Below the pieces are notes generated by a model that ran no database searches, was not told the origin of the DNA, and worked only from the letters and a program-made list of their open reading frames with translations. A stretch of 64,000 bases of DNA from Chiloscyllium plagiosum (taxonomy: Eukaryota): positions 14,419,142 through 14,483,141 of the forward strand of contig NC_057749.1 in assembly GCF_004010195.1 (NCBI RefSeq), written 5' to 3'. Of the stretch, positions 3,822-59,422 are shown piece by piece; positions within the stretch are counted from its first letter, which is position 1; each line of letters starts with the position of its first letter. The position numbers and the translations under genes are program-made.

Positions 3822-4267
3822 TCAATCAAGTTCATCAGGTACAACCTGTCCTTTACAAATCACTTAAGCTCAATTAAAATTTATTGTATTCCAACTCTGC
3901 ATCTATGACTCTATTGGAATTATTGGAGAGAGTGAGGACTGCAGATGCTGGAGGTCAGAGTCGAGAGTGTGGTGCCGGAGAAGCACAGCAAGTCAGGCAG
4001 CATCTGTGGAGCAGGAGAATTGTCGTTTCAGGCTTAAGCCCTTCATGCAGGGCATATGCCCGAAATGTCGATTCTCCTGTTCAGATGCTGCCTGACCTGC
4101 TGTGCTTTTCCAGCACCACACTCTCGACTCTGACCTCCAGCATCTGCAGTCCTCACTCTCTCCAATAGATCCAATAGAGTCATAGATGCAGAGTTGGAAT
4201 ACAATAAATTTGTAATTGAGCTTAAGTGATTTGTAAAGGACAGGTTGTACCTGATGAACTTGATTGA
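3822..4267. repeat. About 445-bp near-perfect palindrome centred on a Penelope-type palindromic mini-element (about 3926-4162)
   Basis: 3822 onward reads as the reverse complement of the sequence ending at 4267; centre near 4045. Confidence 0.95.
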
Positions 4268-5560
4268 ATTTTTTGGAAGAGGTGCAATACAAAGCACTGT
4301 GCAGGGGAATGAATATGCAAGTTATCTATGTAAACACCCAGAAGGCAACTGTTAAAGCATTTCATAAGAAACTGTTAGCTAAAAGCCAAGATCATAAAAT
4401 CAAAAGTAAATTATTGAAGTGGTTAGGAACTTGGCTGAACGGCAACAGAATGACAAATGAGACCCGTACACTCATTGGCAAATTGTGACTAGTGGTGTCC
4501 TGCGAGGATCTGTGATGCAACCTCAACTATTCGCTATATTTAACAAACAACTTAGACAAAGAGGTATGCAAATACCACATATCCAAGTTTCCCAATTGCA
4601 CAAAAGTAGGTGACTTAGTAAACAATGCAGCTGGAAGCATGGACGGAGATTTTAATAGATTTAGTGAACTGGCAAAACTGTGGTAAATGGATTTCAAGGT
4701 AACGAAAGTGAGATCACCTATTTTGGACCGAAAAGCTGGAAACATTGAATATCTGGAGTCTTGGAGGTCCCAGTACATAGATCATTAAAATATCATGAAC
4801 AAGTACAGGAAACAATCAAAATGTCTAATGAAATGCTGGCCTTTGTACATACAGGACTAGAACACAAGCATTGATTAGACAATATCTGGAGTACGGTGAA
4901 CAGTTCTGTGCAACACCACTCATGAAGAACAGGTTGGTATTGGTGTGAGTACAGCACAGATTTATCAAAACAATACCTGAACTCCAAGGGTTAAAATTTG
5001 AGGAGCCATTAGACAAACTATGGTTGTATTCTCTGGAATTTCAAAATTTATGGGGCAATTTCGTATTTTAAAGATATTTAAGGGAAAACAGATAATAGTC
5101 TTCATTGGACAAACTAGAGCACAGCCAGAGAATTTCTAAAAGCATGGCATTCATCCATGGACTGCATCAACAAACACACAGACCTCAACCCAATATTCCA
5201 GCCACTACAATGGATAACCAGAATCAGCAACCAGAAGCAGCAGGAATGGAACCAAATAAATTCCAGAAGATACAGTACAGCAGCGCTTCACAGGAGGCTC
5301 CAAAACACTAAAGGTGTCACCTAAACAGGGGATGAAACATCTGCAAATCAACTTCCCAGCTCAGCAAACATACCTACAACTATAGAAAGCAGATAAGTTA
5401 GATAGAAACGATTTCTGCTGATTGAGACATCTAGGACTGGGGAAGGGGATGGGACGGGGTAAGAAGGGAGGTGGAGAGACAGTGTCTAAAACACAAACCA
5501 GAACTGTCAGAAGTGAAATTCGGGAACACTTCCACATTCAAAGTTTAGAACTCTCCTACA
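4225..5560 (+). mobile_element. Old degraded CR1 LINE ORF2 remnant, interrupted by a Penelope fragment
   Basis: Remnants of NLIEFLEEV, SGVLRGSV and LEYGEQFCA-like motifs with stops and frameshifts. Confidence 0.75.
5100..5382 (+). mobile_element. Penelope-like element 3' end (ORF C-terminus plus decayed hammerhead)
   Basis: Translates REFLKAWHSSMDCINKHTDLNPIFQPL, followed by ACA-CTAAAGG-T-GTC..GAT-GAAA-CA-TC-TGC near 5305-5344. Confidence 0.75.
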
Positions 5561-5577
5561 AATGTCAAACAACTTCT

Positions 5578-5958
5578 TTTTAAATTAATGGGATATGGTC
5601 ATCACTGGCCAGACCAGCATTTAATATCCATTCCTAATTGCCCAGTGGGTCTGAGGTCACATGCAGGTCAGACCAGGTGAGAGCAGTAGGGTGGGTTACT
5701 CTTTGGAGGGTCATTGTGGACTTGTTGGACCGAAGGGCCTGTTTCCACACTGTAGGGATTCTAATTCTAATTCTAAAAGGATATTAGTGAACCAGCTGGG
5801 CTTTTGCAACAATTGTCAGTGGTTATAAAGATTATTAAACTAGGTTGTTTTTGGCGAACTCAAATTGTGTCATTTGCACCAATGGGATTCAAACCCATGG
5901 CCCCAGAACTTTACTCTGGGGTTTTTAATTACTAGTCCGTGACATTATCACTGTGCCA
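5578..5958 (-). mobile_element. Deu-domain SINE (SacSINE1/AmnSINE1-like) with a SINE tail nested at about 5690-5775
   Basis: Deu core motifs (gtcacatgcaggtcagaccagg; ggatattagtgaaccagctggg) and a tRNA-like head on the - strand. Confidence 0.7.
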
Positions 5959-6090
5959 CATCAGTCCCATTTAACTTTTTTTTTGAAAACTGACATTGAT
6001 AACAACTTTGCTTAACAAAAAAATCTCAAGGACACAGGACAAAGATGAGTATATGCAATTAAGTTCAGATCATTCATGATCTCATTGAAT

Positions 6091-6715
6091 TAAGATTAGA
6101 TTAGATTAGATTCCCTACAATGTGGAAACAGGCCCTTCAGCCCAACAAATCCACACCAACCCTCCGAAAAGTAATCCACCCAAGATCCATCCCCCTGCCC
6201 TATATTTACCCCTGACTAATGCACCTAACACTATGGGCAATTTTACCATGACCAGTTCACCTAACCTGCACATCTTTGGACTGTGGGAGGAAACCTAAGG
6301 GGCTACAGAATAAAGTGCAACAGTAAACTTAAGTGCCAGGGTAATGAACTATTAATCACAGAATACCTACAGTGCAAGTAGAGGCCATTCAGCCGATCAT
6401 TCTGTACCAGCCCTCCAACAAGCATCCAATCCAGACCCACCCACCAACTCTATCCCTACATCTTCGCTTTTACCATGGCTAACCCACCGAGCCTGCACAT
6501 TGCTGGACACTATGGGACAATTTAACATGACCAAATCCATTTAACCTACACACCTTTGGACTGTGGAAGGAAACCAGAGCACCCAGCAGAAACCCAAGCA
6601 TACATGGACAGAATGGGCAAACTGCACACAGACAATTGCCCAAGGCTAGAGTCAAACCTGGGTCCCTGGTGCTGTGCTGCAGCAGTGCTAACCACTAGCC
6701 ACTGTGCCACCCATG
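6091..6715 (-). mobile_element. Two HE1/V-SINE-like copies (about 6091-6295 partial, about 6360-6715)
   Basis: Reverse complement of the SINE at 2581, with a (ttaga)n tail. Confidence 0.85.
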
Positions 6716-7027
6716 AGCACCACAGTGAAAGAGAAAGAACTTCCCATCTGAATAACGTTTACTTATATTTTTAAAAAATTAAATGAATGAACTTTTAATT
6801 TCACACTAAATAAGACCATCAATTACTTAAACATACGAAATAAGGAGAGTAATTCAGATGAACATTCTTCGATGGAAGGACATATTCTTTTCACCCCATC
6901 AATTATTTGCTTGACAGCTGCTTGTGGCTTGAAAGTTAATCATGTCGGTACACATTTTCTCAGAGCAAAACACAAGTTGCCTAATATCTACCAATCACTA
7001 TTAGGTGGAATGCAAGAAACACTAGAA

Positions 7028-7415
7028 GAGGTGACCTTATAGAGGTTTACAAAATTATGAGGGGCATAGATAGGATAAATAGACAAAGTCTTTTCCCTGG
7101 GGTCGGGGAGTCCAGAACTAGAGGGCATAGGTTTAGGGTGAGATGGGAAAGATATAAAAGAGACCCAAGGGGCAACTTTTTCACGCAGAAGGTGGTACGT
7201 GTGTGGAATGAGCTGCCAGAGGATGTGGTGGAGGCTGGTACAATTGCAACATTTAAGAGGCATTTGGATGGGTATATGAATAAGAAGGGTTTGGAGTGAT
7301 ATGGGCCGGGTGCTGGCAGGCAGGACTCGATTGGGTTGGGATATCTGGTCGGCATGGACGAGTTGGACCAAAGGGTCTGTTTCCATGCTGTGCATCTCTA
7401 TGACTATGACTCTAT
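7028..7415 (+). mobile_element. CR1 LINE 3' fragment, relatively young
   Basis: GDLIEVYKIMRGIDRINRQSLFPGVGESRTRGHRF... with a ctatga-type tail. Confidence 0.92.
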
Positions 7416-8708
7416 TTTGACTCTAAATATAAATTAATTTGAATTTAATACATTGAAGCCAAGTCCAGTGTTCATTTCCACAAACTTCACATTGCATTTG
7501 AAGCAGCATTGCCAAGGTGGGGCAAAACGCAATGGGAATCAAAATGCAGTCCACATTTTTTTTTAAAAGTCATTTTTCTTGTTGATTTAAAAATACATAA
7601 TACATAGCAATAGATTGATTTCGTATCCCACTTGTGGAACTGACCTTAATTACTCCATCCAACCACTCAATATATATTTAATTCCACACCTCATCATCTA
7701 TGTGGTACATGCCTGCACATAACGGGTCTATGGTAACTAATTATCACCGATGTAAGTGTCAAATGTGGTATGCCTTTAAAAACTGATTTGGTTTAAATTA
7801 TTATTGTTATAGAAACCGGTGATATAATTCCTGTTTTCAGTTATTCCGACACAGATCTATTTTTCAGATGTTAATTCGATTTAAGCATAATTTTGTCTCA
7901 GATTCGATTGGAAAGAGCAACCACTGTAAATTCTAAATTGTCACGTTTTAAACACCCTCTTGTTGCGAAGTAAATGATTTAATGCCGCACTTCCAATATT
8001 CCAGTCAATGTGCTACATCGAGCTCAAACCACGCAACACAAAAACAAAGAATGAAAATAATATTAAACTTGACAATAGAGAAGTATAGAATATCCGATTT
8101 TTGCCCAAAAACGGGCATCTAAGCTCTAACGAAACCTAAATGTTACTTGCAGTTTTCAAAATATTGGAATATAACGTTATGAACGTAAATAGAACTTATA
8201 ATGTCGTGCCTCCACGAGAAAATAAGACATTTGCTGTATACAATCTTATTCCCAAAACTATTTGAAGCTGTAGCAGCCTGAGAGCAACAACATAGTCAAG
8301 GAACTGAACTCTGTCCCGACGATATTCGAGAAAATAAAACAATCAATTCATATTTTAAAGTCTCAAGACAAAATAAATATATATTTTTAAATAGACTTTT
8401 TTAAAAACTTCAAAGGGTTATCACTTAGTTGGATACGAGTCCCTAATCAGTACCTGAAAGCAAAGATGACCGCTTCTTAACTGATCATACACATCAAAAA
8501 GAACAGTAAATCCAAGAATACCCTCTGGTTATATCAAGGAGGGGGTGTTGTTTGACAGTACAAACAACAGATTGCCTTTTCAGAGTTTAAAAAAAAAGTT
8601 TGCCAGAGTTCCAGAAATGGTCTTTAACTTTGCAATCCGAAATCAAAGGCGCCAGCAGACTTCCTTAAAACGTCTGGGAAAGAAAATATCCATTTCCAAT
8701 GATATCTT

Positions 8709-8728
8709 CACACACACACACACACACA
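8709..8728. repeat. (CA)n microsatellite
   Basis: Direct reading. Confidence 0.9.
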
Positions 8729-8940
8729 TATAAAGGGTGCCAGTATGGGAGTGTGCCACATTGCCGGCCGCTGGGTTAAGGACTGAGGGGGCCGACTCCC
8801 TGATTGCAGCTTCTCCCGCCGCCAGGATTCCCCCTCTCACACAGGCTTGGCTGAACAACTTCCAAAGTAATTCCTTCTTAAAAATAAAAGACTGTCACTA
8901 TCACCAGCGGGTTCAAGGAGATAACAGATTCCAGCCTTAC

Positions 8941-9180
8941 CTGAGCACAGGGATGACGGCTGATTAAGGAGGGGACTGGGGCAAGGTTGATGGTTTTTTT
9001 TATGGTTTTGATCTGTTTTAATCTCTACATGGCACTTCTCTCCCTTTCTCTTCCCCTCTATGTTTTTTTTGAGCTGCCCACCAGCCGCTCAACACTCTCC
9101 GACTGAAAACACTGGCGCGCGCACTACCCGCAGCGTGCATTCAGAAGCGCGGACGCTGTCACGGACACGGCGCCGCAAAG
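8941..9180 (-). other. Probable non-coding first exon of a divergent gene (likely PEAK1 by synteny)
   Basis: Minus-strand donor CAG|GTAAGG (plus strand ccttac|ctg at 8940/8941) directly downstream of a CpG/GC-box promoter. PEAK1 is head-to-head with HMG20A in mammals, but no PEAK1 coding sequence is visible here. Confidence 0.55.
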
Positions 9181-9610
9181 GTGCGTGCACGTCACCAAGC
9201 CCACAAAGCGCGCGGGTCGGGTTTTTTTTTTCCCCCTTAGCCTCGCCCCTCCTTCTCGGCCCAGACCCCGCTCCAACCTAGCCAGTCCCGCCCCTTACGA
9301 CACAAATCGCCGCCGATCCCGCCTCCTCGCTGCCAGTCCCGGCCCGATCCTCACGAAACCCCGCCTCCTCGCTGCCAGTCCCGCCCCCTTCGTGTTGCGG
9401 TCCCGCCCTTCCATTGCTGACTCCTTACGTACCGCGGTCCCGCCCTTTCATTACCAGCCCCGCCCCATTTGACCCACTAGCCCGCCCCTTCGGTGTCAGC
9501 CCCGCCCCTTCAATGCAATTCTCTTCCCTCCGACCCTCAGCTCCGCCCCCCCTCGTAAAACTGCCACGCGCGATGTGGCAAAAATTCAAATCAGGCGTCC
9601 CGAGCCCGAC
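9110..9610 (-). promoter_or_regulatory. CpG island promoter with an array of co-oriented GC boxes (Sp/KLF sites)
   Basis: About 12 CCGCCC/CCGCCT-type motifs between 9244 and 9551, and high CpG content. Confidence 0.8.
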
Positions 9611-9654
9611 GTTCTGAACTGTTATTCTTGGGGGGGGGTTGAGGGAGAGATTAA

Positions 9655-9860
9655 GGTCAAGTCTTACCAGACCATGGGGTTGCTCCCTCATTAGTGAGAG
9701 ATGGCTGGAGGTGGTTTAACATGAGGATCACCATGCCTCAGGCTAGGACTAGGCTAAAAAGAGAGCACTTCACTGGTAACCTTAACTGGTACAGAGAATT
9801 AAACCCACGCCATTGGGTCTCACTAAATCACAAACACAAAGTTCAACTCATTTGAACCCC
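9655..9860 (-). mobile_element. tRNA-derived SINE of a different family; a related copy lies on + at about 17112-17340
   Basis: The two copies share reverse-complement similarity (gcctgaggtgtggtgaacctcagg...ctctctaatga...tatggtctggtaa) and a tRNA-like head. Confidence 0.6.
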
Positions 9861-11000: not shown

Positions 11001-11164
11001 AAATTGCTGGATAAAACTCAGCCGGCGTGGCACCATCTGTGGAGAGAAATCAGAGTTAACGCTTGAAGTCCAGTGACGCTTCTACAGAACTGGATACTGG
11101 ACCCGAAAGGTTAATTTCTGATTTCTCTCCATAATTTCTGAGCTTTTCCAGCAATTTCTGTTGT

Positions 11165-12085
11165 AGTATTAGAGACCTAAGTAATTCAGACCTGATTTCC
11201 AATTCCACCAAGCAAATGTTTGGAGTTTGAATCAAATCAAAAGCTACAAGTAAACGTCTAATGAAAACCATTGTCAGTGGTTCATTAATGCTGTTTAGGG
11301 AAGGAAACCTCACCTGGTCTGGCCACCATATGAAACTAACATAGCCATGTGGTTTACTCTTAACTTCCCTCTTAAATGGCCTGGTGACACTGTGAAGAAG
11401 GGTCACTGCACTCAAAACATTAAATCTATTTTCACGGCACAGATGATGCTAGACCTGCTGAGTTTTTCCAGCAATTTCTATTTTTGTTTTAGCAAGTCAC
11501 CGAGTTGTATCAGCTGTTACAAAGGAAAAAGGAATGAAATCGGAAGGACCATCTGGCATTCACTAAGGCACCAAAACAACAGCAACAAAAACAGATTTAT
11601 TAGACCTGCAAAGTTGCCCTGACCTATGGGGTCTAGTGTCAAAGTTGGGAGAGCTATCTCACAGATAAAGCCTGACATAATCTACTCATGGAATCATAAC
11701 TTAAATGCAATGTCCCAAATTGCACCATCACCACCCTTAGCCATACCCTAACTCACTACCAGGACAGACTCAGCAGAACTGGCAGCACAGTGGTATACTG
11801 TTGAGAGCTGCCCTGGAAGCTATCCATATTGACTGTGGAACTCATGATGTCTCATGGCATCAAGTCAAGTATGGGCAAAGGAACCCTCTGCTGATTACCA
11901 CACAGCACTTGCTTAGCAATAGCCTGCACACTGACACTCAGTTTGGATTCTACCAGAGCCAATCAGCTCCTGAACTCATTACAGCCTTAGTCTAAACATG
12001 GACAAAAGAGCTAAATTCGAGAAGTGAGGTGACAATGACTGCACTTGACATCAAGGCCACATTTGACTTGAGTGTGGCATCAAAG
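11165..12085 (+). mobile_element. Deu-domain sequence followed by internally deleted LINE ORF2 (endonuclease N-terminus and RT)
   Basis: Deu core at about 11270-11390, then LWGLVSKLGELSHR..PDII, SWHQVKYGQRNPLLITT and QFGFYQSQSAPELITALV*TWTKELNSRSEVTMTALDIKATFD. Confidence 0.7.
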
Positions 12086-14320
12086 AAGAAAGAGGGTTGA
12101 GAGAAAATGTAAGAGAAGAATGAAGAATGAGAAGAATGTGAGGGGAGAAGATGGTGGTGGAAAATTTCATGTTTTGCTCTGAGAAAATGTATGTCTACAT
12201 GATCAACTTTCAAGTCTTGAGCAGTTTTCAAGCAAATGGATTGATGGGGTAAAAAGAATATGCCATTCTATTGAAGGGCATCAGTTTGAAATATTTTGCT
12301 TATTCAGTATCTTAGGTTATTCTGGATTTGGGAATATTTGAAGGGTAGAATGTGGATGAGAGAACATTCGGAGGGGAGAATGTGTTTGAAAACTGGGATG
12401 GAATGACCTTGAGTGGGGCAATATGGTGATGAGGCATTTAGAGGATAGCATGTGAGTAGGGGAATAATGGAGGGAAGAATGCCATACCCTGACTAACCAA
12501 GTGTTAAATGCAGTGAAGTATTGTGAATCTCACCCATGAGAAATTGCATAGTATAGAAATTGTCCCTATCCATTCAGCTCAGCTTGTCCATACTGGTATT
12601 CACACTCCACAGGAACCTCAAATCTTGCTTCATGTGGTCTTGTTATCATAAATTATTTCTTTCTCACTCATGTTTATGTTTAGCTTCCCTTTAAATTAAT
12701 CTATAATATTTACCTCAACTATCCCTTGTGATAGCATGTTTCACATTCTTACTACAATTAGATCAAGATGTTTCTCCTGATTTATTGAGAACCTACATAT
12801 GGTAGAAATGATTCTGTTCAATTTCGAGTCTTCAGGAAGAAAAAATATATACTTATTTTAATACTTCGTTAATAATCTTAATAACTTGATATGGCATATC
12901 AGTGCAAATTGACAGTATCTTTGAATTTACTGAATTTATTACAGTCCTTAGTTCTGAGAATCAGTCACAGGGCCAGTTTTCAGTATAATTCCAGCATGAC
13001 TAATACCTGATAACAGATGCCAATGTTTTTCATTGTATTCAGACTTTCCCGCTGGAATTGGTGACATACTTTAGAAGCAAAAAAGATGGAAACCCATTGG
13101 AAATAACAGATTTTTTTCTTGAATGTTCAATTTCTTTTCTCACACCCCATAAAAGTGACCATTGATTAATATATGGGAGTCTATCCTCCAAAGTGGTTGA
13201 CCCTAGAAATCCAAACGAGGACTCAAAGAAACTTATGCAGTTAACCATGTCAAAGCTGAAGAAGAATACACCATCGTCATAGTAACAAAGAGAAAATCAA
13301 TGACTTTATTTGGTTCATCAGAAACGTAGTTAGAGAGATTCATAAAAATATTTACAGTATAGATTTGCATAAAATTGCATCTCTTTTTCTTTAAACATTG
13401 AATTTCTTGCTAAGATTCATTGTACACAGATTAGGATGAGGACCAAAAACAAGCCTGGTACTGGTGTCTCAACATGTTTTCAGCATAAGAATGAAAGAAA
13501 AGCATTTTCTGGGTAATAACATGTGAAGATTAGCAAATTCTAAAACAAAGGCCTATAATGGAGGTACCCACATTTGTGCAACACTGAAACATCAATGCAT
13601 CTGTACAAAGGTAATCACTATATCCAGATTATGCAACAGGCCTAAGAATATGTAAGATACTAATTAAAGAAAATTATCAACTTTGAAAACTAAATGAGAA
13701 AAATGACTGTTAATGTTTTGGATACATTTGGCATATATTTGAACAGTCTATTGTAACCTCTGATTTTACATTTTTTAATTACATTTTTCTTTAAGAAAGG
13801 AAATAAATACTTCATATATCATTTTTGACAATGTTAGGGTGTCCCAAAATATTGTACAGATAATCAATTACTTTTGAAGTGAGGTCACTGTTAAAAGGTG
13901 AGAATCACAGTGAGCAATTTGTGCACATTCAGTTGGACATTTCTGCGGCCAGGAAGGGAAAGCACATTGCTAGACACTGACAAAATATTTTGGCCATACT
14001 ATAAAAGAGGATTCACTTGACAGATTTAGATTAAATTAAAGGGAAATCAGAGTTAAAAAGAGTTCTATTGAGCACAGGAGTTTTCTGATAGTCATTAATT
14101 TTAAATAATTTTTTGAAGGAAAGACTATTCATTTCAGATAACATTTTCATATTGCCATATCAGAAATTATAAATTAAAGTTGCTATGCAAAAATAAGTTC
14201 CTACTGTCCACAACAGACCAAGAAAATCCTGGATTTGAAGCCCATGATTGAGCTATCTGATTTCAGCAGATAAAACAAGTAGAACCAATGGTCTCAAAAA
14301 TAAAACTTATACTCCAAAAA

Positions 14321-14355
14321 CACCTGATGAAGGAGCAGCGCTTCGAAAGCTAATG
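14321..14355 (+). ncRNA. Minimal hammerhead motif in a Penelope 3' fragment (about 14305-14407); core intact, stem I mismatched
   Basis: CAC-CTGATGA-A-GGAGC-AGC-GCTTC-GAAA-GC-TA-ATG. Confidence 0.6.
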
Positions 14356-15149
14356 CTTCCAAATAAACCCGTTTGACTATAACCTGGTGTTGTGTGTTTT
14401 TAACTTTGAGTTATCATGTCACCCCTGCTTGAACAGTTTACACAATCAAACTGGGTGGGGAATTCATGGAGGCAAACCAGCAGGGAGTTAGAATTCAGGC
14501 CAACTTTCAAAGAAGTCAGTTTGGGTTAAACAAACACTTCATGCTGTTTGGGTTTCTCCTGCTCCATTTTTCTTAAACAACTTCATAGGGAAAGACAAAA
14601 GCAGTAATGTCGTGGGAAAACCATCGTCTGCAAGCAACCTTCCAAGACACACACCATCCTGAGTTGGCCATATGTCAACATTCCTGGGTTGATGTTGTGG
14701 AATTTCCTACCAAACCTCATTATGGGAGCAACAGTTGAATAATAAAGTTTAGTGTTTCACATGAGCTCAGCGACTGTGCTTCTTCAAACACATAATAAGT
14801 GGAAATTTGAAGCTATATAACAATCTCCAAGCCACCATTTCAAATTACCATTCAGGTCAAAATATGTTGACACTTCTCTACAGCTACTGGGCATGTTTTC
14901 TTGATGTGTTTTTAGTTTGTCTCTCGCTAAGTACATCATAAAAGGTATTATTATAGAGTAGTAATAAAAATGTCCCGACTGTCGTGAAATTCTTTAGTAA
15001 TTTTCCCTTAATTAATTTGTGAAAACATTGATTGAATATATGAGCTGTGAAACGGTTAAAATGCTTTTTCCTAATACACGATTTTACATTTTCTCCATAT
15101 ATATTGTTCATACACATATCTACATGTAAATCAATTAAAAAGTCAAGCG

Positions 15150-19615: not shown

Positions 19616-19872
19616 GAAACCAACATGGTCATTCCAAAAGATGAGAGACTTAACAAACAATCCAGGTCTTTTTCAATATATAATTTCAGTTACATCACAC
19701 TGTAATCTTTTGCTATAAGTTCTTTCTTACAATCTTATAATCCACAACCACCTGATGAAGGAGCAGTGCTTCGAAAGCTAGTGCTTCAAAATAAACCTAT
19801 TGGATTATAACCTGGTGTTGTGTGATTTTTAACTTTGTACACCCCAGTCCAACACCGGCATCTCCAAATCAA
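19616..19872 (+). mobile_element. Penelope-like terminal repeat fragment carrying the intact hammerhead
   Basis: Highly similar to 24540-24797. Confidence 0.8.
19749..19783 (+). ncRNA. Minimal type-I hammerhead ribozyme motif (Penelope-associated), catalytic core intact
   Basis: CAC-CTGATGA-A-GGAGC-AGT-GCTTC-GAAA-GC-TA-GTG: stem I CAC/GTG, stem II GGAGC/GCTTC, palindromic AGCT in place of helix III, predicted cleavage after CUA. Confidence 0.75.
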
Positions 19873-21300: not shown

Positions 21301-22186
21301 TGTAGTACAATCTCCTGTAAAACAACACTTTTCACTGTACCCTCGGTACACATGACCATAATAAATCAAATCAAAATTGAAAAATAAGCATGGTACAATA
21401 TCAAAATTGCCTTTATCTACTGTATATCAGCTTGAGTCCTGAAAAAGAGTCACACCTGAAATGTTGACTTCTCCACTTTCTGATGCTTCCTGGCTTGCTG
21501 TGTTCTTCCAGCCTCCTGCTTATCTATCTGAGTCAACTACCTTAGCACACCTTATTTGTGCAGTGGCTCTGATCTCTGAGAGATGACTTTAAAGGTTGTC
21601 AAAACTTTTAAAATATGTTCTGAATTTCTGCAGCTCTTTTGACACTATAGCACTAAACCTCTAATTTGACTTTTGTGAAAGATATTTTGTCTTCATTCTA
21701 TTTCTACCAACGGGCTGTTTTTTTAAATAAATATTTTTATTAAGAAAAGATTTTAAGTTTTTTACAAAATTACAAAACTAGTACAAATTAGTATGACCAC
21801 TGTACAATATAATAACACTGTCAGGCTGTTTAAAGTGAGAATCTTGATGAACTGTACCTCTTTCTGAAATCAGTGTTTCTCTTCATACAGAAACAAAAGT
21901 ATATGTAGCAGTCATCTTCCATATCAAATTTGAATTAAAGAACAGCAAATTGCCAGGTCATTTAGAGTATCTAAGGTGTGGGGTGGGGAGGCCAAAGTAT
22001 TCTGCGAACTAAGTTAAAAGCTGAGTTGTCCGGAGACAAAGGGGACAATTTGAAGGATTAGATTTAATGAAAAAACGACTGAAGAAAAATAAAGAGACTT
22101 GTGATGAAAGAAACAAAATAGTCACTCAGAGGAACTCAGAAAAATCTTCCATGTGACCAGAGACATTCCTGACATAGATTTGAAAA

Positions 22187-22622: not shown

Positions 22623-23670
22623 ATAAACTGGCAAGGAGCATAACGTAAGACTTCAGGTCCTTCAATTTTCTTTGTTAGATTATCTCTTGACTGGGCTCAC
22701 TGAGTGCTAACAGTAATCCAGTGTCTTCTTGGGAGAGGATAATTGGCCAATATCAGCAAGTGATTTGATCACAGAGGTTTCATAACCAAGACTATCATGT
22801 TTTCTCCTTTTATTTATCCAAACAAATGTCCAGTGTGCAGTTTTACTCTCAAGCTCTAAGTGAGCACTTGAATGCATAATTGAGGCTGATATTTCACTGC
22901 AATAGTGGTAGAATAGTGTCTTTTAGTGAGGTGATGTTTTTGAATTAGACGTGAAACCAAGACCACCTTTAACCTTGCGGGTGTGTCTGAAACCTCCCAT
23001 TGTCAGTTTAATAAAAGTTATGAGGCATTCCTGGAATCTGTTACTGGGGACAGAATGAATGTGTACTTAGTATGAGCTGATCAGTTCAAATTAATTTGTG
23101 AAAAGCAGGCCATGCCTGACAAATCAATTTGAATATTTTGAGACAGTAGGTGTTTTGGTGGATGGGAAACAGGATGTGGGTGCTCTCCTTTCAATATTAT
23201 CTATATGAACTTACCCAGAATATAAATTGTAATATTTCTGTGCCAAGGTTCATCCCTAAGAGAATACAATCAAAAACTCCTCAATTGGTAATTTATTTTA
23301 TTGTTTTTGTAGCACCTTGCTGTGTACATTTGGACATAGCATTGTCTAAACAAGTGACTACACTTCAAAAGTAACTACTTGACAGCAAATGTTTTGGGGT
23401 ATGATAGACTTTGCATGGACATAAATTTGCTTTTTCCTCCCTCTTCACTTCCCTATCTAATTGCACTATTTACAGTGATTGTATTCCTCATTCTACTGCT
23501 TGAGGTCGAGGACATTGGTCCAGAGGGGAAGGCAACAAGGAAGGAGGTGGCACTGAGTCGCCCTGGTGCCTGTTTATTTCTGATTCTTGTTTTTGAAAAA
23601 TGTATCAAACATAATTTAGAAATAATATTTGTAGTTTACTGTTTTCTGGTCACCAGAATTCAGGTACACA

Positions 23671-24797
23671 GTTAAAAATCACCAGGTTAGAGTCCAATAG
23701 GTTTATTTTGAAGCACTAGTTTGTGGAGCGTTGCTCCTTCAGGTGGTTGTGGAGTATAAGATCGTAAGACACAGAATTTATAGCAAAAGTTTACAGTGTG
23801 ATGCAACTGAAATTATAATATTGAAAAAGACCTGGATTGTTTGTTAAGTCTCTCATCTTTTAGAATGACCATGTTAGTTTCAGTTCTTTCATATGTAAAT
23901 CCCAGAACTTTAAAAAATGTTACATTCTCAAGTGAACTTTAACAATAAGTGCCATGTCAGCCCAGATAATGCCCTATGTGAGCCTGTCTGTGCCCCAATG
24001 TTCAGACTGATTCTATTTCAAAAAAGGGTTTTTCAGAATCATGCAGTTTTTGAGCAAAATAAAATATAATTCTGCAAATACAAATTCACCCCACAGACTT
24101 ACATCTGGGTGTGTGTTGGGGGGAGGAGCATTATGAGTGATTCTGTGATAGTGTATGTGTGTGAGTGTAAAGGGATATAAGTCTGTGAGAGGGTGTGAAT
24201 GTGGGTGTGTATGTGTGAACGTATGAGAGAGAGCTTGTGTGTGAGTGAGGGTCTGTGTGAGTGTGTAGTGCAGTGGGGTCACCTGTAGTGTGACAGGAAC
24301 CCAAAATCCCATTTGGGGCCATCCCATTACATTTTGCTCAAAAACTGCCTGAATCCATTTAAGATTCTGTAAAACTCTTTTTTTAGAAATAGAATCTGTC
24401 TGAACTTTGGGGCACAGACAGCCTCACACAGGGCATCTCATACCTTCAATGCATTACCTGGGCCGACATGGCACCTATTGTTAAAGTTCACTTGAGAATG
24501 TAACTTTAAAAAATGTTCTGGGATTTACATATGAAAGAACTGAAACCAACATGGTCATTCTAAAAAATGAAAGGCTTCACAAACAATTCAGGTCTTTTTC
24601 AATATATAATTTCAGTTGTGTCACACTAAACTTTTGCTATAAATTCTGTGTCTTATGATCTTATACTCCACAACCACCTGATGAAGGAGCAGCGCTCCAA
24701 AAGCTAGTGCTTCCAAATAAAACTGTTGGACTATAACCTGGTGTTGTGTGATTTTTAACTTTGTACACCCCAGTCCAAAACCAGGACCTCCAAATCA
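23671..24797. mobile_element. Penelope-like element with inverted terminal repeats (arms about 23671-24060 and 24330-24760) around a GT-rich spacer
   Basis: Long reverse-complement arms, a hammerhead relic in each arm, about 35 nt of extra tail on the right, and a degenerate TSD (agaattcaggta / agagttcaggca). Confidence 0.85.
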
Positions 24798-26199
24798 AGA
24801 GTTCAGGCAATTATCCTAATCTTCCAAACCTGCTTGTTTTACATTGATTGTAGTTTCTGATCATTTCAATAACATTGAAAAGCCAATTCAATTCAATTAG
24901 TTTCCCATTGGGTGGTTTGGGTAAAAATCACTCTAGTATTAAACCCCAGTCTTAATAGTATGTTCATTGAGCTACAGTTTGCTTAAAATATGTCATGCAT
25001 GTTCTTCTAAATACCATTACTCTGTAAACTAATAAAGAGTACAGTAAATTATTAATATTTCATAAGATCCCAGCATCCCTGAAGGAGAAATAGTTCTTGT
25101 TCTGCTTTGCTAATTTGCTTTGTGATTGATGGGCAGTCTTATTCTTGAGTGCTGTGCAATATGAGTTGAAAGTATAATTAGGTTTGTCTGCCAGAAAGTA
25201 GCAAAAAGCTGCAGTTAACATTTTTAAAATCATTTTTATACCTCCTCCTCCTTGTCTTGAAGCTGCTGAACCATAGTCAGGTGTGACTCCATAGGTTCTA
25301 AGAAACAGTCATTCAACCTGAAACATTAACTCTGATTTCTGTCCACAGATGTTGCCAGACCTGCTGAGCTTTTCCAGTAATTTTTGTTTTTGTGATTCCA
25401 TAGGCACCAGCCCTTCTTTGGCATCTAACCTAAGGTTCCTGATTACTTCCCACCAATGCCTAGTTGAAGTGCAGCATTTTGGGCAAGACCTAAGGATATG
25501 GTTTGGCTTGACTGGGTGTATGCTTCAGTCAAATAGCCCACTCCCACTCACTATCTTGCATCATCCATGAATAATGGCCAATTTGATCACTTAGAGTAGC
25601 ACTATACTAAATAATTATTAAATAAACTTGTCAGTGCACTACAATTGTTGCAACTTCCAATAACAGATCTTCTAAAATGTGGCCATTTTAAATTTAATAT
25701 TTTCTCCAAGTAATTTATTTAATGACCACTTTATGAAGGCCCAAAGTTCAGTACCTGAACTGCACTGAGCTGATGAACTTACCAAGGGAGCAGATGGGAT
25801 TTAATTGGTTTCTGCACTTGGCTTCTGGATCAGTCCTGAGGGTGATCTGGCCATGTGTTTCTGGTTGGCCAATATATCCACTGCCAGGAAGCCCCTTTTA
25901 TGTATGTAGATGAAAAATTGGTTATGATGAAGCCCTGCAGTTGATTAGCTTGCTGACATTCAGTGTGAAATATTGAACAGTTGGGTGAGATGCTGGAATA
26001 GCTGGCATAACTGGAGCAGAATCCAAGGAAGAGATATGACTTTGAGAAGAAACAGTATGCTGAACTGTATTTGCTGTTCACAATGTAGTCTGGATAGATC
26101 AAACATAGATTGGGTGGCAGCTTTGCAGAATGTCTCCATTCAATTCACAGGCACGATCTGAGCTTCCAGTGACCTACCACTTCTAGTTCTCTTGTTTGA

Positions 26200-27240
26200 G
26201 AGTCTGTCGGTGGAAAAGGATAGTGGGTCAGGCAGCATCCGAGGAGCAGGAAAATTGACTTTTCAGGCTGGAGACTTTTGCTTTCACATTGATATCTCAG
26301 TCCTCAGCATGCTGTAGTGTTCCACTGAAGCTCAATGTAAACTTGAGCAACACCTCATTTTCAGGTTAGAAACTTTACTGCCTTCTGGACTTGACATTAA
26401 CAAACAACAATTTCAGACTGCAATCTCTGCTCCCCTATTTTGTATCTTTTTCTTCACATATGTCGGTCTTAAATTTATTTTCCCCATGGTCTTGCTTTCA
26501 GAAAATAGCTGTTTGTTATTCTCCCATTTACAGCTCTGGATCCATTTTGTTTTTATTTCGTTTTTGTCCCATTCCCACTCCCTTTGATTCTGCTCTAGCA
26601 GTTCTTTTGTCATATAATGTCAGCTGTCTTGCATCCTTTCACAAACCTTCCTTTTGTTATTTGTGCAACTTCACCCATTTTATTTACTTAAAAACTATTA
26701 TGTTTCTAACTTTACCAAAACTCTGTGTGGCAGAGAATCACCAACTCCCTGACATTTCCTCTTTCCTCTCTTTGGATCCTGATCCCAACACCGACCATTA
26801 TTTCCAGGATTCTCATTGACCTCATCTCCACAAACCTTCTCTACAGCTTCCCATGTACTTTCCCCCTCTTATTTTCTGCACAAACCTCCAAAGCATTTGT
26901 ACTGTGAAAGGCATCAGCATGCCAACCATTGCATCGACCCTTGGAGCAAAGGTGTGGCGACATAGCTTGGAGGGAACTTTGCTTCCCATCTCATACTCCC
27001 TGAATGCTGAAACATCCAGGTTCTTCGTTCCACAGACAGATTTGTCCTGGTGGACCCATTGTTTCAGCCCATTCCTGCCCCACTTAATTTCTTTCTTCTT
27101 ATCTTAAATCTTCTTTGTTCTGGCCACCTCCATTGAAGACTCTTCTTACCTTATCATTTCAACTGTTCCCAGTATGTTAACTCACAGTTGCTGCCAGATG
27201 TGCTAAGTTTCTCCAGCACCTTTTGGCTTTTATTTTGGGC
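26200..27240 (+). mobile_element. Old Penelope-like fragments (GIY-YIG C-terminus and RT N-terminal pieces)
   Basis: DISVLSML*CSTEAQCKLEQHLIFRLETLLPSGLDI at about 26290-26400 and PGGPIVSA at about 27044-27068. Confidence 0.65.
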
Positions 27241-36512: not shown

Positions 36513-37276
36513 TTTTAGGTTCTTTCCCAAGATTTCACACACGAGATGCAATTCGCAGACACCAACTTCTACAAACAGTTAGTTTATTAAAGCCTGTACC
36601 AGCTAGGTAGACCCTTTTGACCCTCTTCACAAGCATGCAAAGTCAGGTCAACGAGGCCCTAAACAAAGGAAACACATCCCCTTAAACAAGTCAGATGGTC
36701 ATGCTCACAAATACTCTGGCCAATCTACCATAGTAACATGACATTCAAGACAATCCCCCCCCACCACCACCAGCCATTCCCTCGCAGTCACATGTTACCC
36801 CAGGATGAGATCATCCTTGGAGATAATGCATTTGCAAATGCCCTAATCCTGGGGAATCGTTATGCAGACAATTTCCTGACTCAGTAATTTGTGTCGAGAG
36901 TGTAGTGCTGGAAAAGCACAGCAGGTCAGGCAGCATCTGAGGAGCAGGAGAATCAACATTTTGGGCATAAGTCCTTCATCAAGAATTAGAAATACTCCTT
37001 CCTGATTCTCCCAAGACAATATAGGTGTAATATACCTAGCTACAGAGGTTGGCTGGAAAGCATTTCCAAATGGAAGAGATTGAATGATAGTTTAATTTGA
37101 TAAGAGTAAAGGGAATAGTAGTAGCAAATGACACTTTAAATGGAGTGGGAGTCATCTGCATTCCTGCATGAATGTTGTCCCCATCCACGTCCAGAATGTT
37201 CAGTCGGTGCAGTTGAACTCTTTAATATTACATTAATGTCCAGAGAGATATTCCAATTTAATCTTTTAATGTTTCA
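36513..37276 (-). mobile_element. Probable solo LTR with 4-bp TSD (GCAG), containing a Penelope-type half element at about 36890-36986
   Basis: Interrupts a repeat tail (tcaagaaggcag|...|gcagctcaccacc). The minus strand begins TGAAAC, with AATAAA about 70 nt before the far end. Confidence 0.6.
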
Positions 37277-43261: not shown

Positions 43262-44624
43262 GTATGTTAAACTGTAGTCTTACCAAAGGCACTGATCTTT
43301 TGTACTGTCTTTGATTAATTTGTTTGTGAGAAGATACCAGAGGCTGGAAGCAAATTGGGTAAGAAGTGTTTATTTTTATTTGTTCCCCTGTACATGCTGA
43401 CTGTTTCTCCAATATACTTTAATGGAAAGCAAAACAAGAGTTAGTGTTCCGAGCCTGGTGACTCTTCGTCAGAACAAGGGTCATTGGTCTCAAAAAGTTA
43501 AATCTCTTCTCTCTACGGATGTTGCCAGAGCTCCTGTGTTTGTCTAGCACTCTGTTTTTGTTCTAGATTTCCAGAATCTGCAGTTCTTTGTGTTTTATAC
43601 TTTAGTTGATGTTGGCAAACCCCAGTAACCTGCCCATGTTCTCTGTGAACATGTACAGTATATGCATTGGGAGGCAAGCACAGTGTGGAAGTCCTCACAA
43701 TTTAACTCCAAGTCTGAGTTAGTCGTTGGCTGCAACAGATCAGCATTCCTGAGATATGGAGATCAAAGGATCCATCCATGACCAAAATTGTATTGACAAA
43801 GGCTAAAATTCGGTTCAGCTAAGTTGCACCCCACAATCTTTGGAAGGCCACTAACATGCTTACCAAGCAATAACAGTTAATTAGGTGATTTCGTCAATTA
43901 AGCTACCTCAGTCAAGAGTTGAAAGCTCTTTGGAACGGTAAGAAAGAAAATTGACAGCCATTTACAATGTGAGGAAGAGAATTGAGGACAGAGCAAGAAT
44001 TGTATGACTATATAGGATTGTACAGAAAACTTATTTCTGTTCCAGCACATGCGCACACTGTGTTTTGCATATTCTCTCTCCTCCCCCCTTTTAAAGCCCT
44101 GATTTCTACCAGGTATAATTCTACAGGCACAGATCAGCCTCATTCTCGCTCAAATGATCATTTGTTTTGAGATGGCCTTGACAGACATTATTACTGGAAT
44201 ATTCAAAAGTATCTCTGTTCAACATATACACAGCAGCTAGCATTCAGAGCAGCATAAGTAAACAGAAGTAAGAGATGTAAACAAAACTTCCATATCCCTG
44301 GATTGTGCATCATATTGTTGATACTGTTATGTAACTAAGCAGTAATTGCTGTGCAAGCTGCTGTCTTGGAAGGTTGCCAAATGTTCTCACTTTTCTCATT
44401 CATCCACTTCTACAGAAGTGATCTTGTTCAGTGACATTTTCCATATGTTGATATTTCTGCTAGAAGCTTGATGCCGTACTCTTTTTCAATTTATATTTGT
44501 GATTGTAACAATTTTGTTCAGCAATGCCTCTTGATCACTAAACATGTTGTAGAGGCCTTAGCTTCTGATTAACTCAATCTAAATCAAAGGCTGTTGTTTC
44601 TTGAAGCGATTTTTAAAAACCTTT

Positions 44625-46236: not shown

Positions 46237-48856
46237 GTGAGTTTCAAAGCCATCTGTGTTCATCCCTGGATTGCTAAAGAACACAGTAGACGCATTGTTC
46301 TTCAGCCACAAGCAGTACTCTTTTTATTCAGAGGAGAAAATTCACATTTCTTTGGAAATTAATTTGGATAAATTCAAGCTGTCTTTTTTTCCACTTAAGA
46401 GAATTTAATGAAAAATTTGAAAAAAGGTGGACATGAAATGGAAATAAAACCATTGAGGAAGATTAAGGAAGGAGACAGGATAACGCATTGGAAGAATCCT
46501 AATAGATAAACTCTGTATTCAAGGAGAACCAGACATTAACAGTTGGATATAATTGGATTATGTTTTTAATTCAACAATAATGACTGTAGTTATATTGCAT
46601 TTTTAATATAATCAAGAATCCCAAGTAACTTCATGTAAGCATTATTAAATAACATCAGGCCACATAAGGCAATATTGGGTTGGCTGACCAAAGGCTTAGC
46701 TAAAAAGAGAGATTTTAAGCAGTATCTCAAAGGAACAAAGTGAGGTAGAGATGAAGAAAGGTGTGGGGATGAAATTCCAGAGCTTGTGGCTCAGATCTCT
46801 CTCTATCTCTTTTGCTTTCTTCTGCCATTCCATATTACAGAATAAAAGTGCCACTTATTGTAAGTTCTGTCTCATGTTCACATTATGGCTGCAGCAATAC
46901 TATCTATCCTTTTGTACATAACCCAAATTGCCATCTGTCAATCATGATTTGGCATGTGAACATTAGTGATTGGTAGATTTTGCGTACAGAAAACCATGCT
47001 ATTTGCCTGTCTTTCTTTAGTCACCTGGATAGATTGTGCTTGTGGAGAGCATTATTATTCCAGCTGTATTCAGCTAATTCAGCTCCAGCTAGGAAATAAA
47101 CCTCCACAGTTTCATGCACCTGAAATATTAACTTTTTTTTTCTCCAAAGATGTTGCCTGACTTGCTGAGTATTCCCATCATTTTTGTTTTTATTTCAGCA
47201 GCCTTCTGAAAAATGTGGCCCACTACTTTAATATGAGGAACTAGTTTCTCTCCTTGGTATTGCTACTGGCCCAAATATGTGTAGAACTAATATGTCTGTT
47301 ACTCAAGTGAGTTATTTGGGGACTGGATTAAAAAATGAGCTGGGACCTCTGATGAAATCCAACACAGTCTGGTGGAATTAAAGCCTACGACTCCCAGCTG
47401 TGAGGGTTAGAGAGCTCTAATAATTCTAATGGCACAGAAGTCTATCTAGTGTGGCACAAAATTAACTTTTTATTTTGTCAGAGAGGCCAAAGATGATTTG
47501 GTAGAAAAACATGTCACACTAATCCAATGAGATTCACACTGAGGTACATCTGCAATTAACTGTACCTTCGGTGACTGTGAGTTTGTGCCTGAAATCAATA
47601 TGTTATATTCCCCAGTATTGTCAACATCAGTCATTGATGTTGACAATCTCAAAATTTGTACCAAGAGTCACATTGATTCATTGTGCGTTCAATTCAGCAA
47701 GAAAGAGCAATGATGAACATTTCAAGTACAGATATTGTACACAATAAGCCTTTTGTTATTCAGTACAGTACCTGCCTTTGTGATTGAAATCACATTGGTG
47801 ACCTCATGGTTTTCACCTTGGTTATCTTTCTTTTATGTCTCAAGACAAGGTAATATATTTTCTGCCTACCAACATTATTATGTGTAATGTGATAGTTAAC
47901 TCTGTGGTCAGAGTAAGTTTGGGAACGTTTCAAAAACCATTTCAGAGACGGGTGCAAACATGAATCAAACACAATTTAGACTTTCAGTAGGAAATGAACC
48001 TCCTCCCTGTGGGGAGTATACTGTAAATGTCTGTGAAATTAATTATATTTCAATTATAGATTGGGGTTTAAATATCAAACCTATAACTATTTTTGGAATG
48101 TACCCACTATCTGGCAAGATATTAAATATGACAAAAAACTCCCATCTTTAAAGATAAAGATTTCCAATGCCGCAGCTACATTGTAATGCTTTGTCTAATT
48201 GTTATTCTCCTGATGGGGGTACAAGTGATATGCAGCTGAACAGTGGCAATGCCACAGCCAAGCTAAATACTGTTTTCCATTAAAATTTTCAGAATGGTTG
48301 ATCAATAACAATTAGAAATGAGAACTCTGGTTCTCTTGCCCTCCTTCCTTCTGAGAATGCTGTGTTTTCTTTAGAAACTAGACTGAGGTCAGTAAACTGA
48401 GCACAGACTGGGAATTGAATTTAACATTCTCTGTATTCTATGACTTGTTACTAGACCAGGCAGTATCTTTAGCAGGAGACTGTATCTGTTGAAATATTTC
48501 ATCTTCTCTATAATTTGCTGATAAAGTGAAATGGGCAGTAAAGCTTTGTGAGTGCAAAGATTGAAAATGTTCGTTCATAATAAAACCTGTTGTAAATAAT
48601 TGAAAAATATGAATACCAGGTTGATTTGGTTCTTTGCAGCCTGCATAATCTTTCTGTGGCCACAGTAGCTTTGATGTGAAATAAGTTAAACTGTTGGTTT
48701 GAATGAACTAGCAAACTGAGTAATTGAATTTTAAAAAAGGAGGTGGTCTAACTGGTGAAGAATGAGTCTCAACCAAACTACACATGGATTGATTTGATTT
48801 TTGACGGGGTGAGTCTCTTTGACATGGTAAACAGCTTTTTTTGTATTATTAAGCAG

Positions 48857-49069: not shown

Positions 49070-49094
49070 GTACTGGGAGGATGGATACTAAACA

Positions 49095-49355
49095 ATAAAA
49101 AGAGAATTGTGGGTGCTGGAAGTCGGAAAGAAAAACAGAAATTGATGAAAAAGCACAGCATGTCTGGCAGCATCTGTGGAGAGAAATCAGAATTAACGTC
49201 TCAGGTCTAGTGATCCTTCTTCAGAACTAGTAATGGTGAGGACATGATTCCTAGCTACTGCTAGTTCTGAAGCAAAGCTCTGGACGCTAACTCTGATTTC
49301 TCTCCACAGATGCTGCCAGACCTGCTGACTTTTTCCAGCAATTTCTATCTTTGTT
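49095..49355. mobile_element. Palindromic Penelope-type mini-element immediately after the HMG-box exon
   Basis: Arms tctggcagcatctgtggagagaaatcaga / tctgatttctctccacagatgctgccaga, with a minus-strand hammerhead relic at about 49192-49229. Confidence 0.8.
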
Positions 49356-49474
49356 GCTGAGAGGTTAGATTTGTTAAGTTAGTAATTCATAATGGATGCT
49401 TCTAAAGTCCCAGAATTGTAGACTTCCTTTTAATATGGATGTAATTTTGTAACATTTCTTTGTAGTAACAGAGC

Positions 49475-51785: not shown

Positions 51786-51837
51786 GTGGGATAGGAGGCC
51801 TGAAGATATCATCTGCTGTGAAACATGTGCTTTTTTT

Positions 51838-58700: not shown

Positions 58701-58896
58701 TGTTTCCAATTGTCAGTCCATTCTGTAATCTTCTATTGAACTACACCCAGGAATAGTCTGTGCTGATTGTTTCTTTGCCTCCGCTTTGTGACTTCTCTCC
58801 CTGGCCATTTGCATAGATCAAAGACTGTCCATGTAAGTCATCAGAATGTGCTATCCTTAGTTGAGACAGTGTTTGGGAAAATGAACATTAGTTATG

Positions 58897-59125
58897 GAAT
58901 CATACACAGCATGGAAGCAAACCCTTTGGCCCAACTCATCCGTGCCAACTAGGTTTCCTAAACTGAACTAGTCCCATTTGTCTGTGTTTCGCCCATATCC
59001 CTCTAAACCTTTCCTGTCTATGTACCTGTCCACATGTCTTTAAGTGTTGTAATTGTACCCACCTCTACCACATCCTCTGGAAACTCATTCCATATATACA
59101 CCACCCTCTGTTTGAAAATTATACC
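58897..59125 (-). mobile_element. CR1 3' fragment
   Basis: Similar to 1741-2090. Confidence 0.85.
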
Positions 59126-59210
59126 TATCAAAGCAATGTGACTTAATTGTGGCACCAAAGTTTGGGAACAGATTAACTATGCAGTCTTTTATCTTGATTG
59201 ATATTTAAAA

Positions 59211-59422
59211 GCAGAGCTGAAAAATGTGTTGCTGGAAAAGCGCAGCAGGTCAGGCAGCATCCAAGGAGCAGGAGAATCGACGTTTTGGGCATATGCCCTT
59301 CTTCAGACTTATGCCCAAAACGTCGATTCTCCTGCTCTTTGGATGTTGCCTGACCTGCTGCGCTTTTCCAGCAACACATTTTTCAGCTCTGATCTCCAGC
59401 ATCTGCAATCCTCACTTTCTCC
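59211..59422. mobile_element. Palindromic Penelope-derived mini-element with an 11-bp TSD
   Basis: TGATATTTAAA at 59199-59209 and 59423-59433, near-perfect arms, and about 31 nt of one-sided tail. Confidence 0.9.

Follow-up and report, generated by a model that had tools for sequence, protein, structure and literature searches.

Penelope-like elements (PLEs) carry minimal type I hammerhead ribozymes, which Cervera and De la Peña (2014, PMC4209133) describe as combining CUGANGA and GAAA boxes with an unpaired base between A9 and 10.1, a G10.1-C11.1 pair, a palindromic helix III, a short helix I and a longer helix II. These motifs fall into many consensus families per genome with compensatory changes and are mostly solitary remnants of truncated elements; the published set also includes opposite-strand pairs 100-700 bp apart. 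Their activity in vitro is low, and action as dimers in multimeric transcripts has been proposed (PMC4209133; PMC6765202). For Poseidon PAc, the element of the anole Anolis carolinensis, hammerhead action with the help of the element's protein has been proposed; this protein cuts and extends both target strands in vitro and begins reverse transcription internally on the RNA, about 90 nt past the hammerhead cut, from either of two points whose choice sets the tail (PMC11167929). PLE insertions are further known to be highly truncated at the 5' end, to lie next to an inverted copy that is itself 5'-truncated, to bear a tail of 30-40 bp at one end only and to have target duplications of variable length (PMC8557442). 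Here we analyze a stretch of 64,000 nucleotides from the shark Chiloscyllium plagiosum (NC_057749.1, 14,419,142 to 14,483,141; hereafter the window), a region dense in interspersed repeats within an assembly of 3.56 Gb. Our results give strong support to the view that the hammerhead-like motifs scattered through this window are minimal type I hammerheads of the PLE pseudo-long terminal repeat (pLTR), lying in short, dead, 5'-truncated PLE 3' ends and their non-autonomous relatives, with cleavage predicted.

The original prediction, made from the letters of the window, was that its repeats share a hammerhead layout of the minimal type I kind found in PLEs. A motif is present within a few bases of every site it cited, in the order helix I, CUGANGA, one extra base, helix II, GAAA, two bases, U, H and the second strand of helix I, and this arrangement agrees feature by feature with the published one (PMC4209133). 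To place these motifs against chance, we used a sample made up of the window and 200 kb from fixed positions in three other contig regions (264 kb in total, 254,658 non-N bases; L-numbered loci below are sequences of this genome outside the window) and a descriptor with exact boxes, helix II of at least 4 bp, helix I of at least 2 bp, NNUH and an optional bulge of 0 or 1 nt after A9. The descriptor found 18 distinct intact motifs in the 254,658 bases, one of them in the window (19746-19788); 100 third-order Markov simulations averaged 0.08 and never exceeded 1. A covariance model seeded with 11 intact motifs of the families called F2, F4 and F5 below gave 48 matches at E<=0.01 in the sample, seven of them within the window; family F1 was excluded from the model because MAFFT placed it one column off register. 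Genome-wide exact-pattern searches, each paired with a backward-control pattern, returned 228,477 matches to the generic core, or about 64 per Mb, versus 715 for the control. The families differ in their stems and in their numbers as follows.

F1: helix I CAC/GUG, helix II GGAGC/GCUYC; 12,463 exact-pattern matches genome-wide, backward control 0
F2: helix I GUU/AAC, helix II GGGUC/GACCC; 447 matches, backward control 0
F3: helix I GUC/GAC, helix II GGGU/ACCU; 224 matches, backward control 0
F4: helix I UC/GA, helix II GGGC/GCCC; 65,695 matches, backward control 0
F5: helix I UUCA/UGAG, helix II GUUACC/GGUGAC

Sorting the repeats by profile search (nhmmer) over the 264 kb reduced these five families to three groups: F1 (22 copies, 6 in the window), an F2/F3/F4 superfamily (80-86 copies, 16-17 in the window) and F5 (9 copies, 1 in the window). 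The claim that the repeats have unrelated flanks thus holds between the three groups and fails among F2, F3 and F4, whose members have one homologous tail after the motif in common. The profile consensuses of F1, F2/F4 and F5 contain a complete CUGANGA/GAAA/UH core; for F3 the 5' box was left free in the genome search, and about 92 of the 100 matches listed read CUGANGA when scored by eye. The CUGANGA box, demanded by the descriptor, is present in 18 of 18 intact motifs and is mutated in most window copies. All 18 also need the 1-nt bulge after A9, though the descriptor permitted none as well. The 10.1-11.1 pair is G-C in F1, F2, F4 and F5 and G·U in F3, the GAAA box and the A15.1-U16.1 pair are in place, and H17 is A in F1, C in F4 and F5, and U in F2 and F3. 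Helix III is cut down to a 4-nt palindrome in all families, as had been proposed: AGCU in F1 and ACGU in F2-F5. Positions 15.2 and 16.2 are strictly palindromic in 13 of the 18 intact motifs; of the other five, four have CA, the product expected when CG decays as a CpG, and the last has AA. Compared with the published PLE motifs (PMC4209133), helix II is shorter here, at 4-6 bp, than the 7-8 bp of the Schistosoma families, helix I has only 2 bp in F4, and the G·U pair of F3 is a departure.

The stems vary by family and still pair, through compensatory changes both within and between families, which is what had been noticed in the window. Between families, pair 1.1-2.1 appears as G-C, A-U, G·U or U-A, pair 1.2-2.2 as U-A, A-U or G-C, and pair 10.4-11.4 as G-C, C-G, U-A or A-U. 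Across the 48 model matches, in a count that takes in F2-F5 and leaves F1 out, 81.2% of cells are paired versus 71.8% in shuffles, and double-change cells number 37 versus 8.6±2.3, a value reached in none of 500 shuffles. The covariation score is 0.346 in register and at most 0.121 when the 3' partners are slid. Consensuses without a full core or without covariation were named in advance as the outcome that would speak against ribozymes; instead, the cores are complete in all families and covariation lies above the shuffles.

Most of the window copies are dead. Scored by eye for the state of their cores, they comprise one intact motif, one with all core letters, about 14 decayed two-half motifs and at least six pieces with only the 3' half or tail. 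The estimate of more than ten relics from about five families is borne out by these roughly 16 two-half sites and at least six half or tail pieces, with the five families collapsing to three groups. The copies are listed here in order of position.

3840..4250, both strands: F4 head-to-head palindrome with arms of at least 200 nt; motif halves at 4014-4053 (-) and 4039-4077 (+)
5258..5385, + strand: F5 copy (nhmmer E=9.9e-25); relic at about 5304-5346 with box CTAAAGG (G5>A, A9>G) and C11.1>U
11001..11169, both strands: F2 head-to-head pair; decayed (-) hammerhead at 11050-11093, (+) arm starting within helix II
11390..11491, + strand: F2 copy with tail; decayed hammerhead at 11393-11421, G12>A
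14304..14410, + strand: 5'-truncated F1 repeat (nhmmer E=1.7e-31); hammerhead at 14316-14360 with all core letters, pair 1.1-2.1 broken (G>A)
19710..19871, + strand: F1 copy (nhmmer E=4.7e-51) with the sole fully intact hammerhead of the window, a descriptor match, at 19746-19788
21432..21530, + strand: F3 copy; relic at 21433-21473, G8>A, helix II mismatch (covariance model E=0.0098)
23664..24799, both strands: long head-to-head F1 pair, tails outward
23664-23786, - strand: arm of this pair; hammerhead at 23709-23750 with a 3-nt box deletion and GAAA>ACAA
24633-24797, + strand: the other arm; hammerhead at 24670-24714, G12>A
25292..25393, + strand: F2 copy with its tail kept; strongly decayed hammerhead at 25292-25335 (E=2.1)
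26162..26278, - strand: F4-like copy with the hammerhead 3' half and tail only
35748-35951, both strands: single F1 insertion of two 5'-truncated copies head to head, between duplications at 35736-35747 and 35952-35963
35859-35905, + strand: hammerhead of the (+) arm of this insertion; G12>A, helix II damaged
35828-35874, - strand: motif of its (-) arm; 3' half only
36885..36995, - strand: F4 copy; relic at 36947-36988, C3>U, G12>A (covariance model E=2.6e-8)
43435..43586, both strands: F2 head-to-head pair; (-) relic at 43435-43478, A13>G, U16.1>C, helix II pairs (covariance model E=0.0079), (+) arm at 43469-43586
47114..47198, + strand: F2 copy with the hammerhead 3' half and tail only
49105..49360, both strands: F2 head-to-head pair; (-) relic at 49187-49230, box intact, A14>G (covariance model E=0.00055)
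59210-59422, both strands: one F4 insertion composed of two head-to-head copies, between duplications at 59199-59209 and 59423-59433

The four F1 sites first noticed (14321, 19749, 24675 and 35864) are all present, and two further F1 motifs, at 23709-23750 (-) and 35828-35874 (-), extend that list. In the intact motif at 19746-19788 the predicted cut would fall between 19780 and 19781. The arms of the long F1 pair run inward as far as about 24035 on one side and 24380 on the other; the center of this 1.1-kb structure is a GT-rich, microsatellite-like stretch at 24070-24330. In the F4 palindrome at 3840..4250 the junction falls within the CUGANGA box and replaces the 5' box of the motif at 4039-4077 (+). 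The F5 copy has an intact relative at L002:3345-3392. In the F2 pair at 49105..49360 the (+) arm (49253-49360, motif 49253-49300) is more decayed than the (-) arm. In the F4 insertion at 59210-59422 the (-) hammerhead (59271-59311) has G12>A as its only difference, and the (+) arm begins in loop II, leaving a half motif in 59306-59394 (+).

One lesion dominates this decay. By eye, G12>A occurs in at least six window motifs, and in the genome as a whole 7,008 sequences match the F4 pattern once G12 is changed to A; the intact form matches 65,695 times, and a form with A13>G, which is not a CpG change, 197 times. The change from CGAAA to CAAAA, singled out from the window as the typical inactivating lesion, is thus the leading one genome-wide, and its excess makes CpG decay at C11.1-G12 a fitting explanation. 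Loss of G12 by this route would provide a simple marker for dead copies.

A link to Penelope coding sequence was found outside the window. Among 14,403 candidates in the genome, 150 were scored, and 47 of these match the GIY-YIG profile. At L023 an F4-type motif and its tail lie about 250 nt after a frame that encodes the C-terminus of a reverse transcriptase (RT) together with a GIY-YIG domain; the same order, with hammerhead and tail within a few hundred bases of the frame, recurs at L026 and twice at L027, and at L022 an F3-type motif follows a GIY-YIG frame. Published Penelope hammerheads occupy this same location, the pLTR (PMC4209133). A long open frame in L027 was rejected as a masked stretch of N. 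At L026:1234-1902 (+) a frame of 223 aa runs from the GIY-YIG region through the hammerhead and tail, and loop II of F4 holds an ATG. Both observations recall PAc, whose open reading frame (ORF) starts at stem II (PMC11167929), and raise the possibility that the tail here is the start of the next unit's ORF. Within the window no Penelope coding sequence was found, either by Pfam on 130 ORFs of at least 75 aa or by tblastx with three Penelope-bearing loci, whose matches were confined to the hammerhead and tail repeats. This removes one element of the original prediction, a Penelope ORF ending before 5305: Pfam finds no RT or GIY-YIG domain there. The frame scraps at 4264-5071 have motifs resembling those of a LINE (long interspersed element) reverse transcriptase; tblastx of 4200-5300 against the LINE-like region at 8400-11000 gave no match.

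The arrangement of the copies bears the mark of PLE integration, and the window inserts carry the insertion hallmarks listed in PMC8557442. Many copies form head-to-head pairs whose tails face outward. Adjacent pairs in the 264 kb (gap <=1300 nt) are head-to-head in 31 cases, tail-to-tail in 9 and same-strand in 11, and for abutting pairs (gap <=35 nt) the numbers are 22 head-to-head versus 1 tail-to-tail. The same bias was seen by eye among 100 matches listed for each of two families genome-wide, in which opposite-strand pairs within 2 kb run minus/plus rather than plus/minus by 7 to 1 in F4 and by 10 to 1 in F1. Spacings of the F1 pairs among the listed matches cluster near 44-48 nt and 1,110-1,185 nt, and recurrence of the longer spacing suggests that the 1.1-kb F1 palindrome may be a standard full-length product. 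The F1 insertion at 35748-35951 is flanked by a target duplication of 12 bp (35736-35747 and 35952-35963; 0.02 expected) and the F4 insertion at 59210-59422 by an AT-rich one of 11 bp (59199-59209 and 59423-59433). Each has an extra tail on one arm only, of 36 nt on the left arm of the former and 31 nt on the right arm of the latter. An automated search recovered flank repeats of at least 11 nt in 4 of 31 pairs, with controls at no more than 9; it misses cases such as 35748-35951 because match ends are imprecise.

On a young F4 copy in L004, whose intact motif spans 1561-1602 with a predicted cut after 1594, read and contig depth increases some tenfold at 1561-1563, precisely where the hammerhead begins on its 5' side. 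It ends near 1657, beyond which most copies diverge, an extent indicating that most family members share only the hammerhead and about 95 nt. Sequence words of this copy are also present in sequencing runs from seven studies with four organism labels, and the F4 family is probably shared by related species.

How such inserts could arise is suggested by the anole element, to which the copies described here show several likenesses (PMC11167929): they end at an internal RT start at least about 90 nt past the cut site, the hammerhead lies at the junction of pLTR and ORF, a tail of 30-40 nt is optional, and targets are AT-rich, as in the 11-bp duplication at 59199. We envision a scenario in which a tandem PLE transcript contains the ORF, the pLTR with its hammerhead and the start of the next unit. 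Reverse transcription would begin at an internal position of this RNA, 90-150 nt or so past the point where the hammerhead cuts, and copy back through the hammerhead, usually stopping early and leaving fragments of hammerhead and tail. If both strands of a staggered target cut were to prime, two truncated copies would come to lie head to head between target duplications, with an optional tail of 30-40 nt on one side. The two-strand cut and extension observed with PAc in vitro would yield inserts like those seen here, and by analogy the anole results may supply their mechanism. Once inserted, copies would decay neutrally and fastest at the C11.1-G12 CpG, a step for which the G12>A excess speaks in part, with master elements presumably retaining the ribozyme to process a multimeric transcript. 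Having a helix III of only four palindromic nucleotides, these hammerheads would act as dimers or with the help of the element's protein.

Several results weigh against our interpretation. An Rfam scan of the window returned no hammerhead at the gathering threshold and none up to E<=10, and a genome-wide search with RF00163 gave no matches, in a setting where its control matched in no genome either. Hammerhead_1 (RF00163) has the catalytic core and type I topology in common with the motifs described here, and we attribute the failure at Rfam thresholds to models that score a helix III and loops that the minimal form lacks. At E<=10 the scan gave only weak microRNA-like matches, several of which are head-to-head hammerhead inserts: the palindrome at 35748-35951 was detected as MIR821 and the hairpin at 59210-59422 as mir-3127. 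Folding is equivocal. The best fold of the F1 monomer is an alternative hairpin rather than the hammerhead (z=-1.1), the F4 monomer forms helix II alone (z=-0.7) and the F5 monomer folds well (z=-3.8); cofolded dimers are favored, but pair through the core letters instead of adopting the catalytic fold. In F1 (for example at 19746-19788) a second GCUYC, identical to the 3' strand of helix II, stands immediately past the cut, so that in the best monomer fold the 5' strand of helix II pairs with the wrong partner; in this folding model the misfold could possibly be a built-in "off" conformer. A PLE frame was seen upstream of F3- and F4-type motifs only, and not of F1, F2 or F5. The alignment behind the covariation analysis was fitted to the model, which favors the structure, and its sequences are related. 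A total of 1,133 RNA reads cover the young F4 copy in both directions with no pile of ends at the predicted cut, in one poly(A) single-cell run that is ill suited to reveal one, and these reads fit passive transcription of many copies. In the anole, hammerhead mutants still insert in vitro and no in vivo reads end at the cut site (PMC11167929). Finally, a subfamily at L015:5876-6050, itself a head-to-head pair, keeps helix II, GAAA and the tail, but where the CUGANGA box should be it reads TTGACAAA; this could be a lineage without a hammerhead, or else an artefact of the junction that later spread.

The last two observations would also suit a module kept mainly for a non-catalytic job, such as recognition by the PLE protein, template switching or cDNA joining, with the likeness to a hammerhead secondary or vestigial. 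Head-to-head junctions are located within the 5' half of the hammerhead or a little upstream of it, and the 3' half is retained in almost every arm, as it is in the L015 subfamily that lacks the 5' box. With two exceptions, the arms of abutting pairs start at profile positions 7-47, and the jump in read depth on the young F4 copy coincides with the 5' edge of the hammerhead. This clustering of junctions at the hammerhead suggests that its self-complementary parts, namely the hairpin of helix II and the palindrome of helix III, might guide cDNA joining or a template switch. However, arm starts taken from local alignments are imprecise and homology upstream varies by subfamily. All 11 invariant core letters are kept across families with differing stems, which a mere hairpin or palindrome would not need, and for PAc, where mutants are unimpaired for insertion in vitro, the hammerhead cleaves with protein and compensatory C3/G8 mutants behave in a ribozyme-like manner (PMC11167929). 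We therefore consider a mainly non-catalytic role unlikely.

A different origin would be that some families, F1 above all, are non-LTR retrozymes whose hammerheads excise a circularizing unit. The absence of an ORF from F1, its long form of about 0.5-0.6 kb per unit and one same-strand F1 pair 355 nt apart among 100 matches listed are in keeping with this idea, and a 2026 preprint (bioRxiv 10.64898/2026.07.22.740005) derives animal retrozymes from PLE pLTRs and reports retrozymes in one cartilaginous fish. Adjacent F1 pairs in the 264 kb point the other way, with none on the same strand versus eight head-to-head; the window has none of the regular tandem direct repeats of 150-450 bp, each with a canonical type I hammerhead, that characterize retrozymes; no sign of circular RNA was seen, with no search aimed at it; same-strand F2-F4 pairs have irregular gaps of 14-1268 nt; and helix III is a bare palindrome where retrozymes have a stem and tetraloop with loop-loop contacts (PMC7229834). 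This combination makes a retrozyme origin improbable. Near-perfect palindromes spanning whole inserts, with 11-12 bp direct repeats at their ends and a microRNA-like hairpin reading by Rfam, might instead recall foldback or MITE-type (miniature inverted-repeat) DNA transposons with terminal inverted repeats, in which the hammerhead likeness would be incidental. Yet solo 5'-truncated copies outnumber pairs, arms are unequal in length and differ in their break points, the same module lies downstream of PLE reading frames, the core is invariant while the stems covary, and a one-sided tail of 31-36 nt is a PLE trait (PMC8557442). We regard a DNA transposon as very improbable indeed, and favor PLE-derived minimal hammerheads for the repeats of this window.

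These hammerheads take their place beside other high-copy ribozyme repeats. Non-LTR retrozymes and amphibian satellites are likewise high-copy, non-autonomous repeats carrying type I hammerheads in which helix III is weak and palindromic (PMC7229834; bioRxiv 10.64898/2026.07.22.740005); according to the same sources they are found alongside PLEs, whose pLTRs are their probable origin. They differ in forming tandem direct arrays with loop-loop contacts and circular RNAs, whereas the motifs here are minimal and dispersed or head-to-head (PMC7229834). The count of 228,477 compares with about 4,000 in coelacanth and about 9,000 in Xenopus (PMC4209133), a rough comparison given that descriptors differ, and the density of about 64 per Mb with 126,247 type I motifs in the roughly 28 Gb of axolotl (PMC7229834; size from the preprint), again with differing descriptors, so that these figures hint at an exceptional abundance and do not set a record. 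Retrozymes called active number at most 14,255 in 31 vertebrates (bioRxiv 10.64898/2026.07.22.740005). No relevant report of cartilaginous-fish Penelope hammerheads surfaced in a limited search of the literature, where supplementary tables may list further species or counts. Our comparison indicates that the motif kind was already known, that the families were not found described and that copy number alone stands out. A bolder proposal, to which we give only a small chance, is that this genome holds the densest hammerhead load of any animal, with about 2.3x10^5 core-intact motifs in at least five lineages, that its young inserts are footprints of two-strand priming in vivo, and that the module has a second, structural role in integration. 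If true, thousands of young, duplication-flanked head-to-head inserts with a one-sided tail would preserve the in vivo record of a priming reaction so far shown only in vitro. In annotating this genome, many of its short interspersed and hairpin repeats, a sizeable fraction, should be classed as Penelope-derived rather than as MITEs or microRNA-like hairpins. For ribozyme biology no new principle follows, but the young copies, which number in the tens of thousands and belong to several families with different stems, are usable for the study of covariation in minimal hammerheads. They could also show, directly in a genome, how Penelope integration turns out with respect to the choice of tail, priming on two strands and the position of junctions.

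The window also holds other repeats and an HMG-box frame. Two domains were all that Pfam recognized in its ORFs: an HMG box and, weakly, RVT_1 (9929-10234, E=0.009). The RVT_1 match lies in a decayed RT-bearing element at 8485-10995 (+), with a frame of 206 aa at 10338-10955 and without a GIY-YIG domain, which resembles a LINE of the CR1/L2 type; copies of its 3' end are found at 7027-7412, 1720-2053, 32875-33149, 34160-34567, 40984-41156 and 51369-51780. The HMG-box frame (152 aa, 48752-49207 (+), Pfam E=1.2e-11) adjoins the F2 pair at 49105-49360 and could be an exon or a processed pseudogene. A tRNA-like short interspersed element (SINE) has at least eight copies in the window, on the (+) strand at 2584-2788, 39248-39453, 40038-40243 and 63833-63998 and on the (-) strand at 6503-6716, 21096-21309, 39003-39177 and 51952-52156, and its facing copies at 39046-39373 give rise to a weak mir-3473-like Rfam match.

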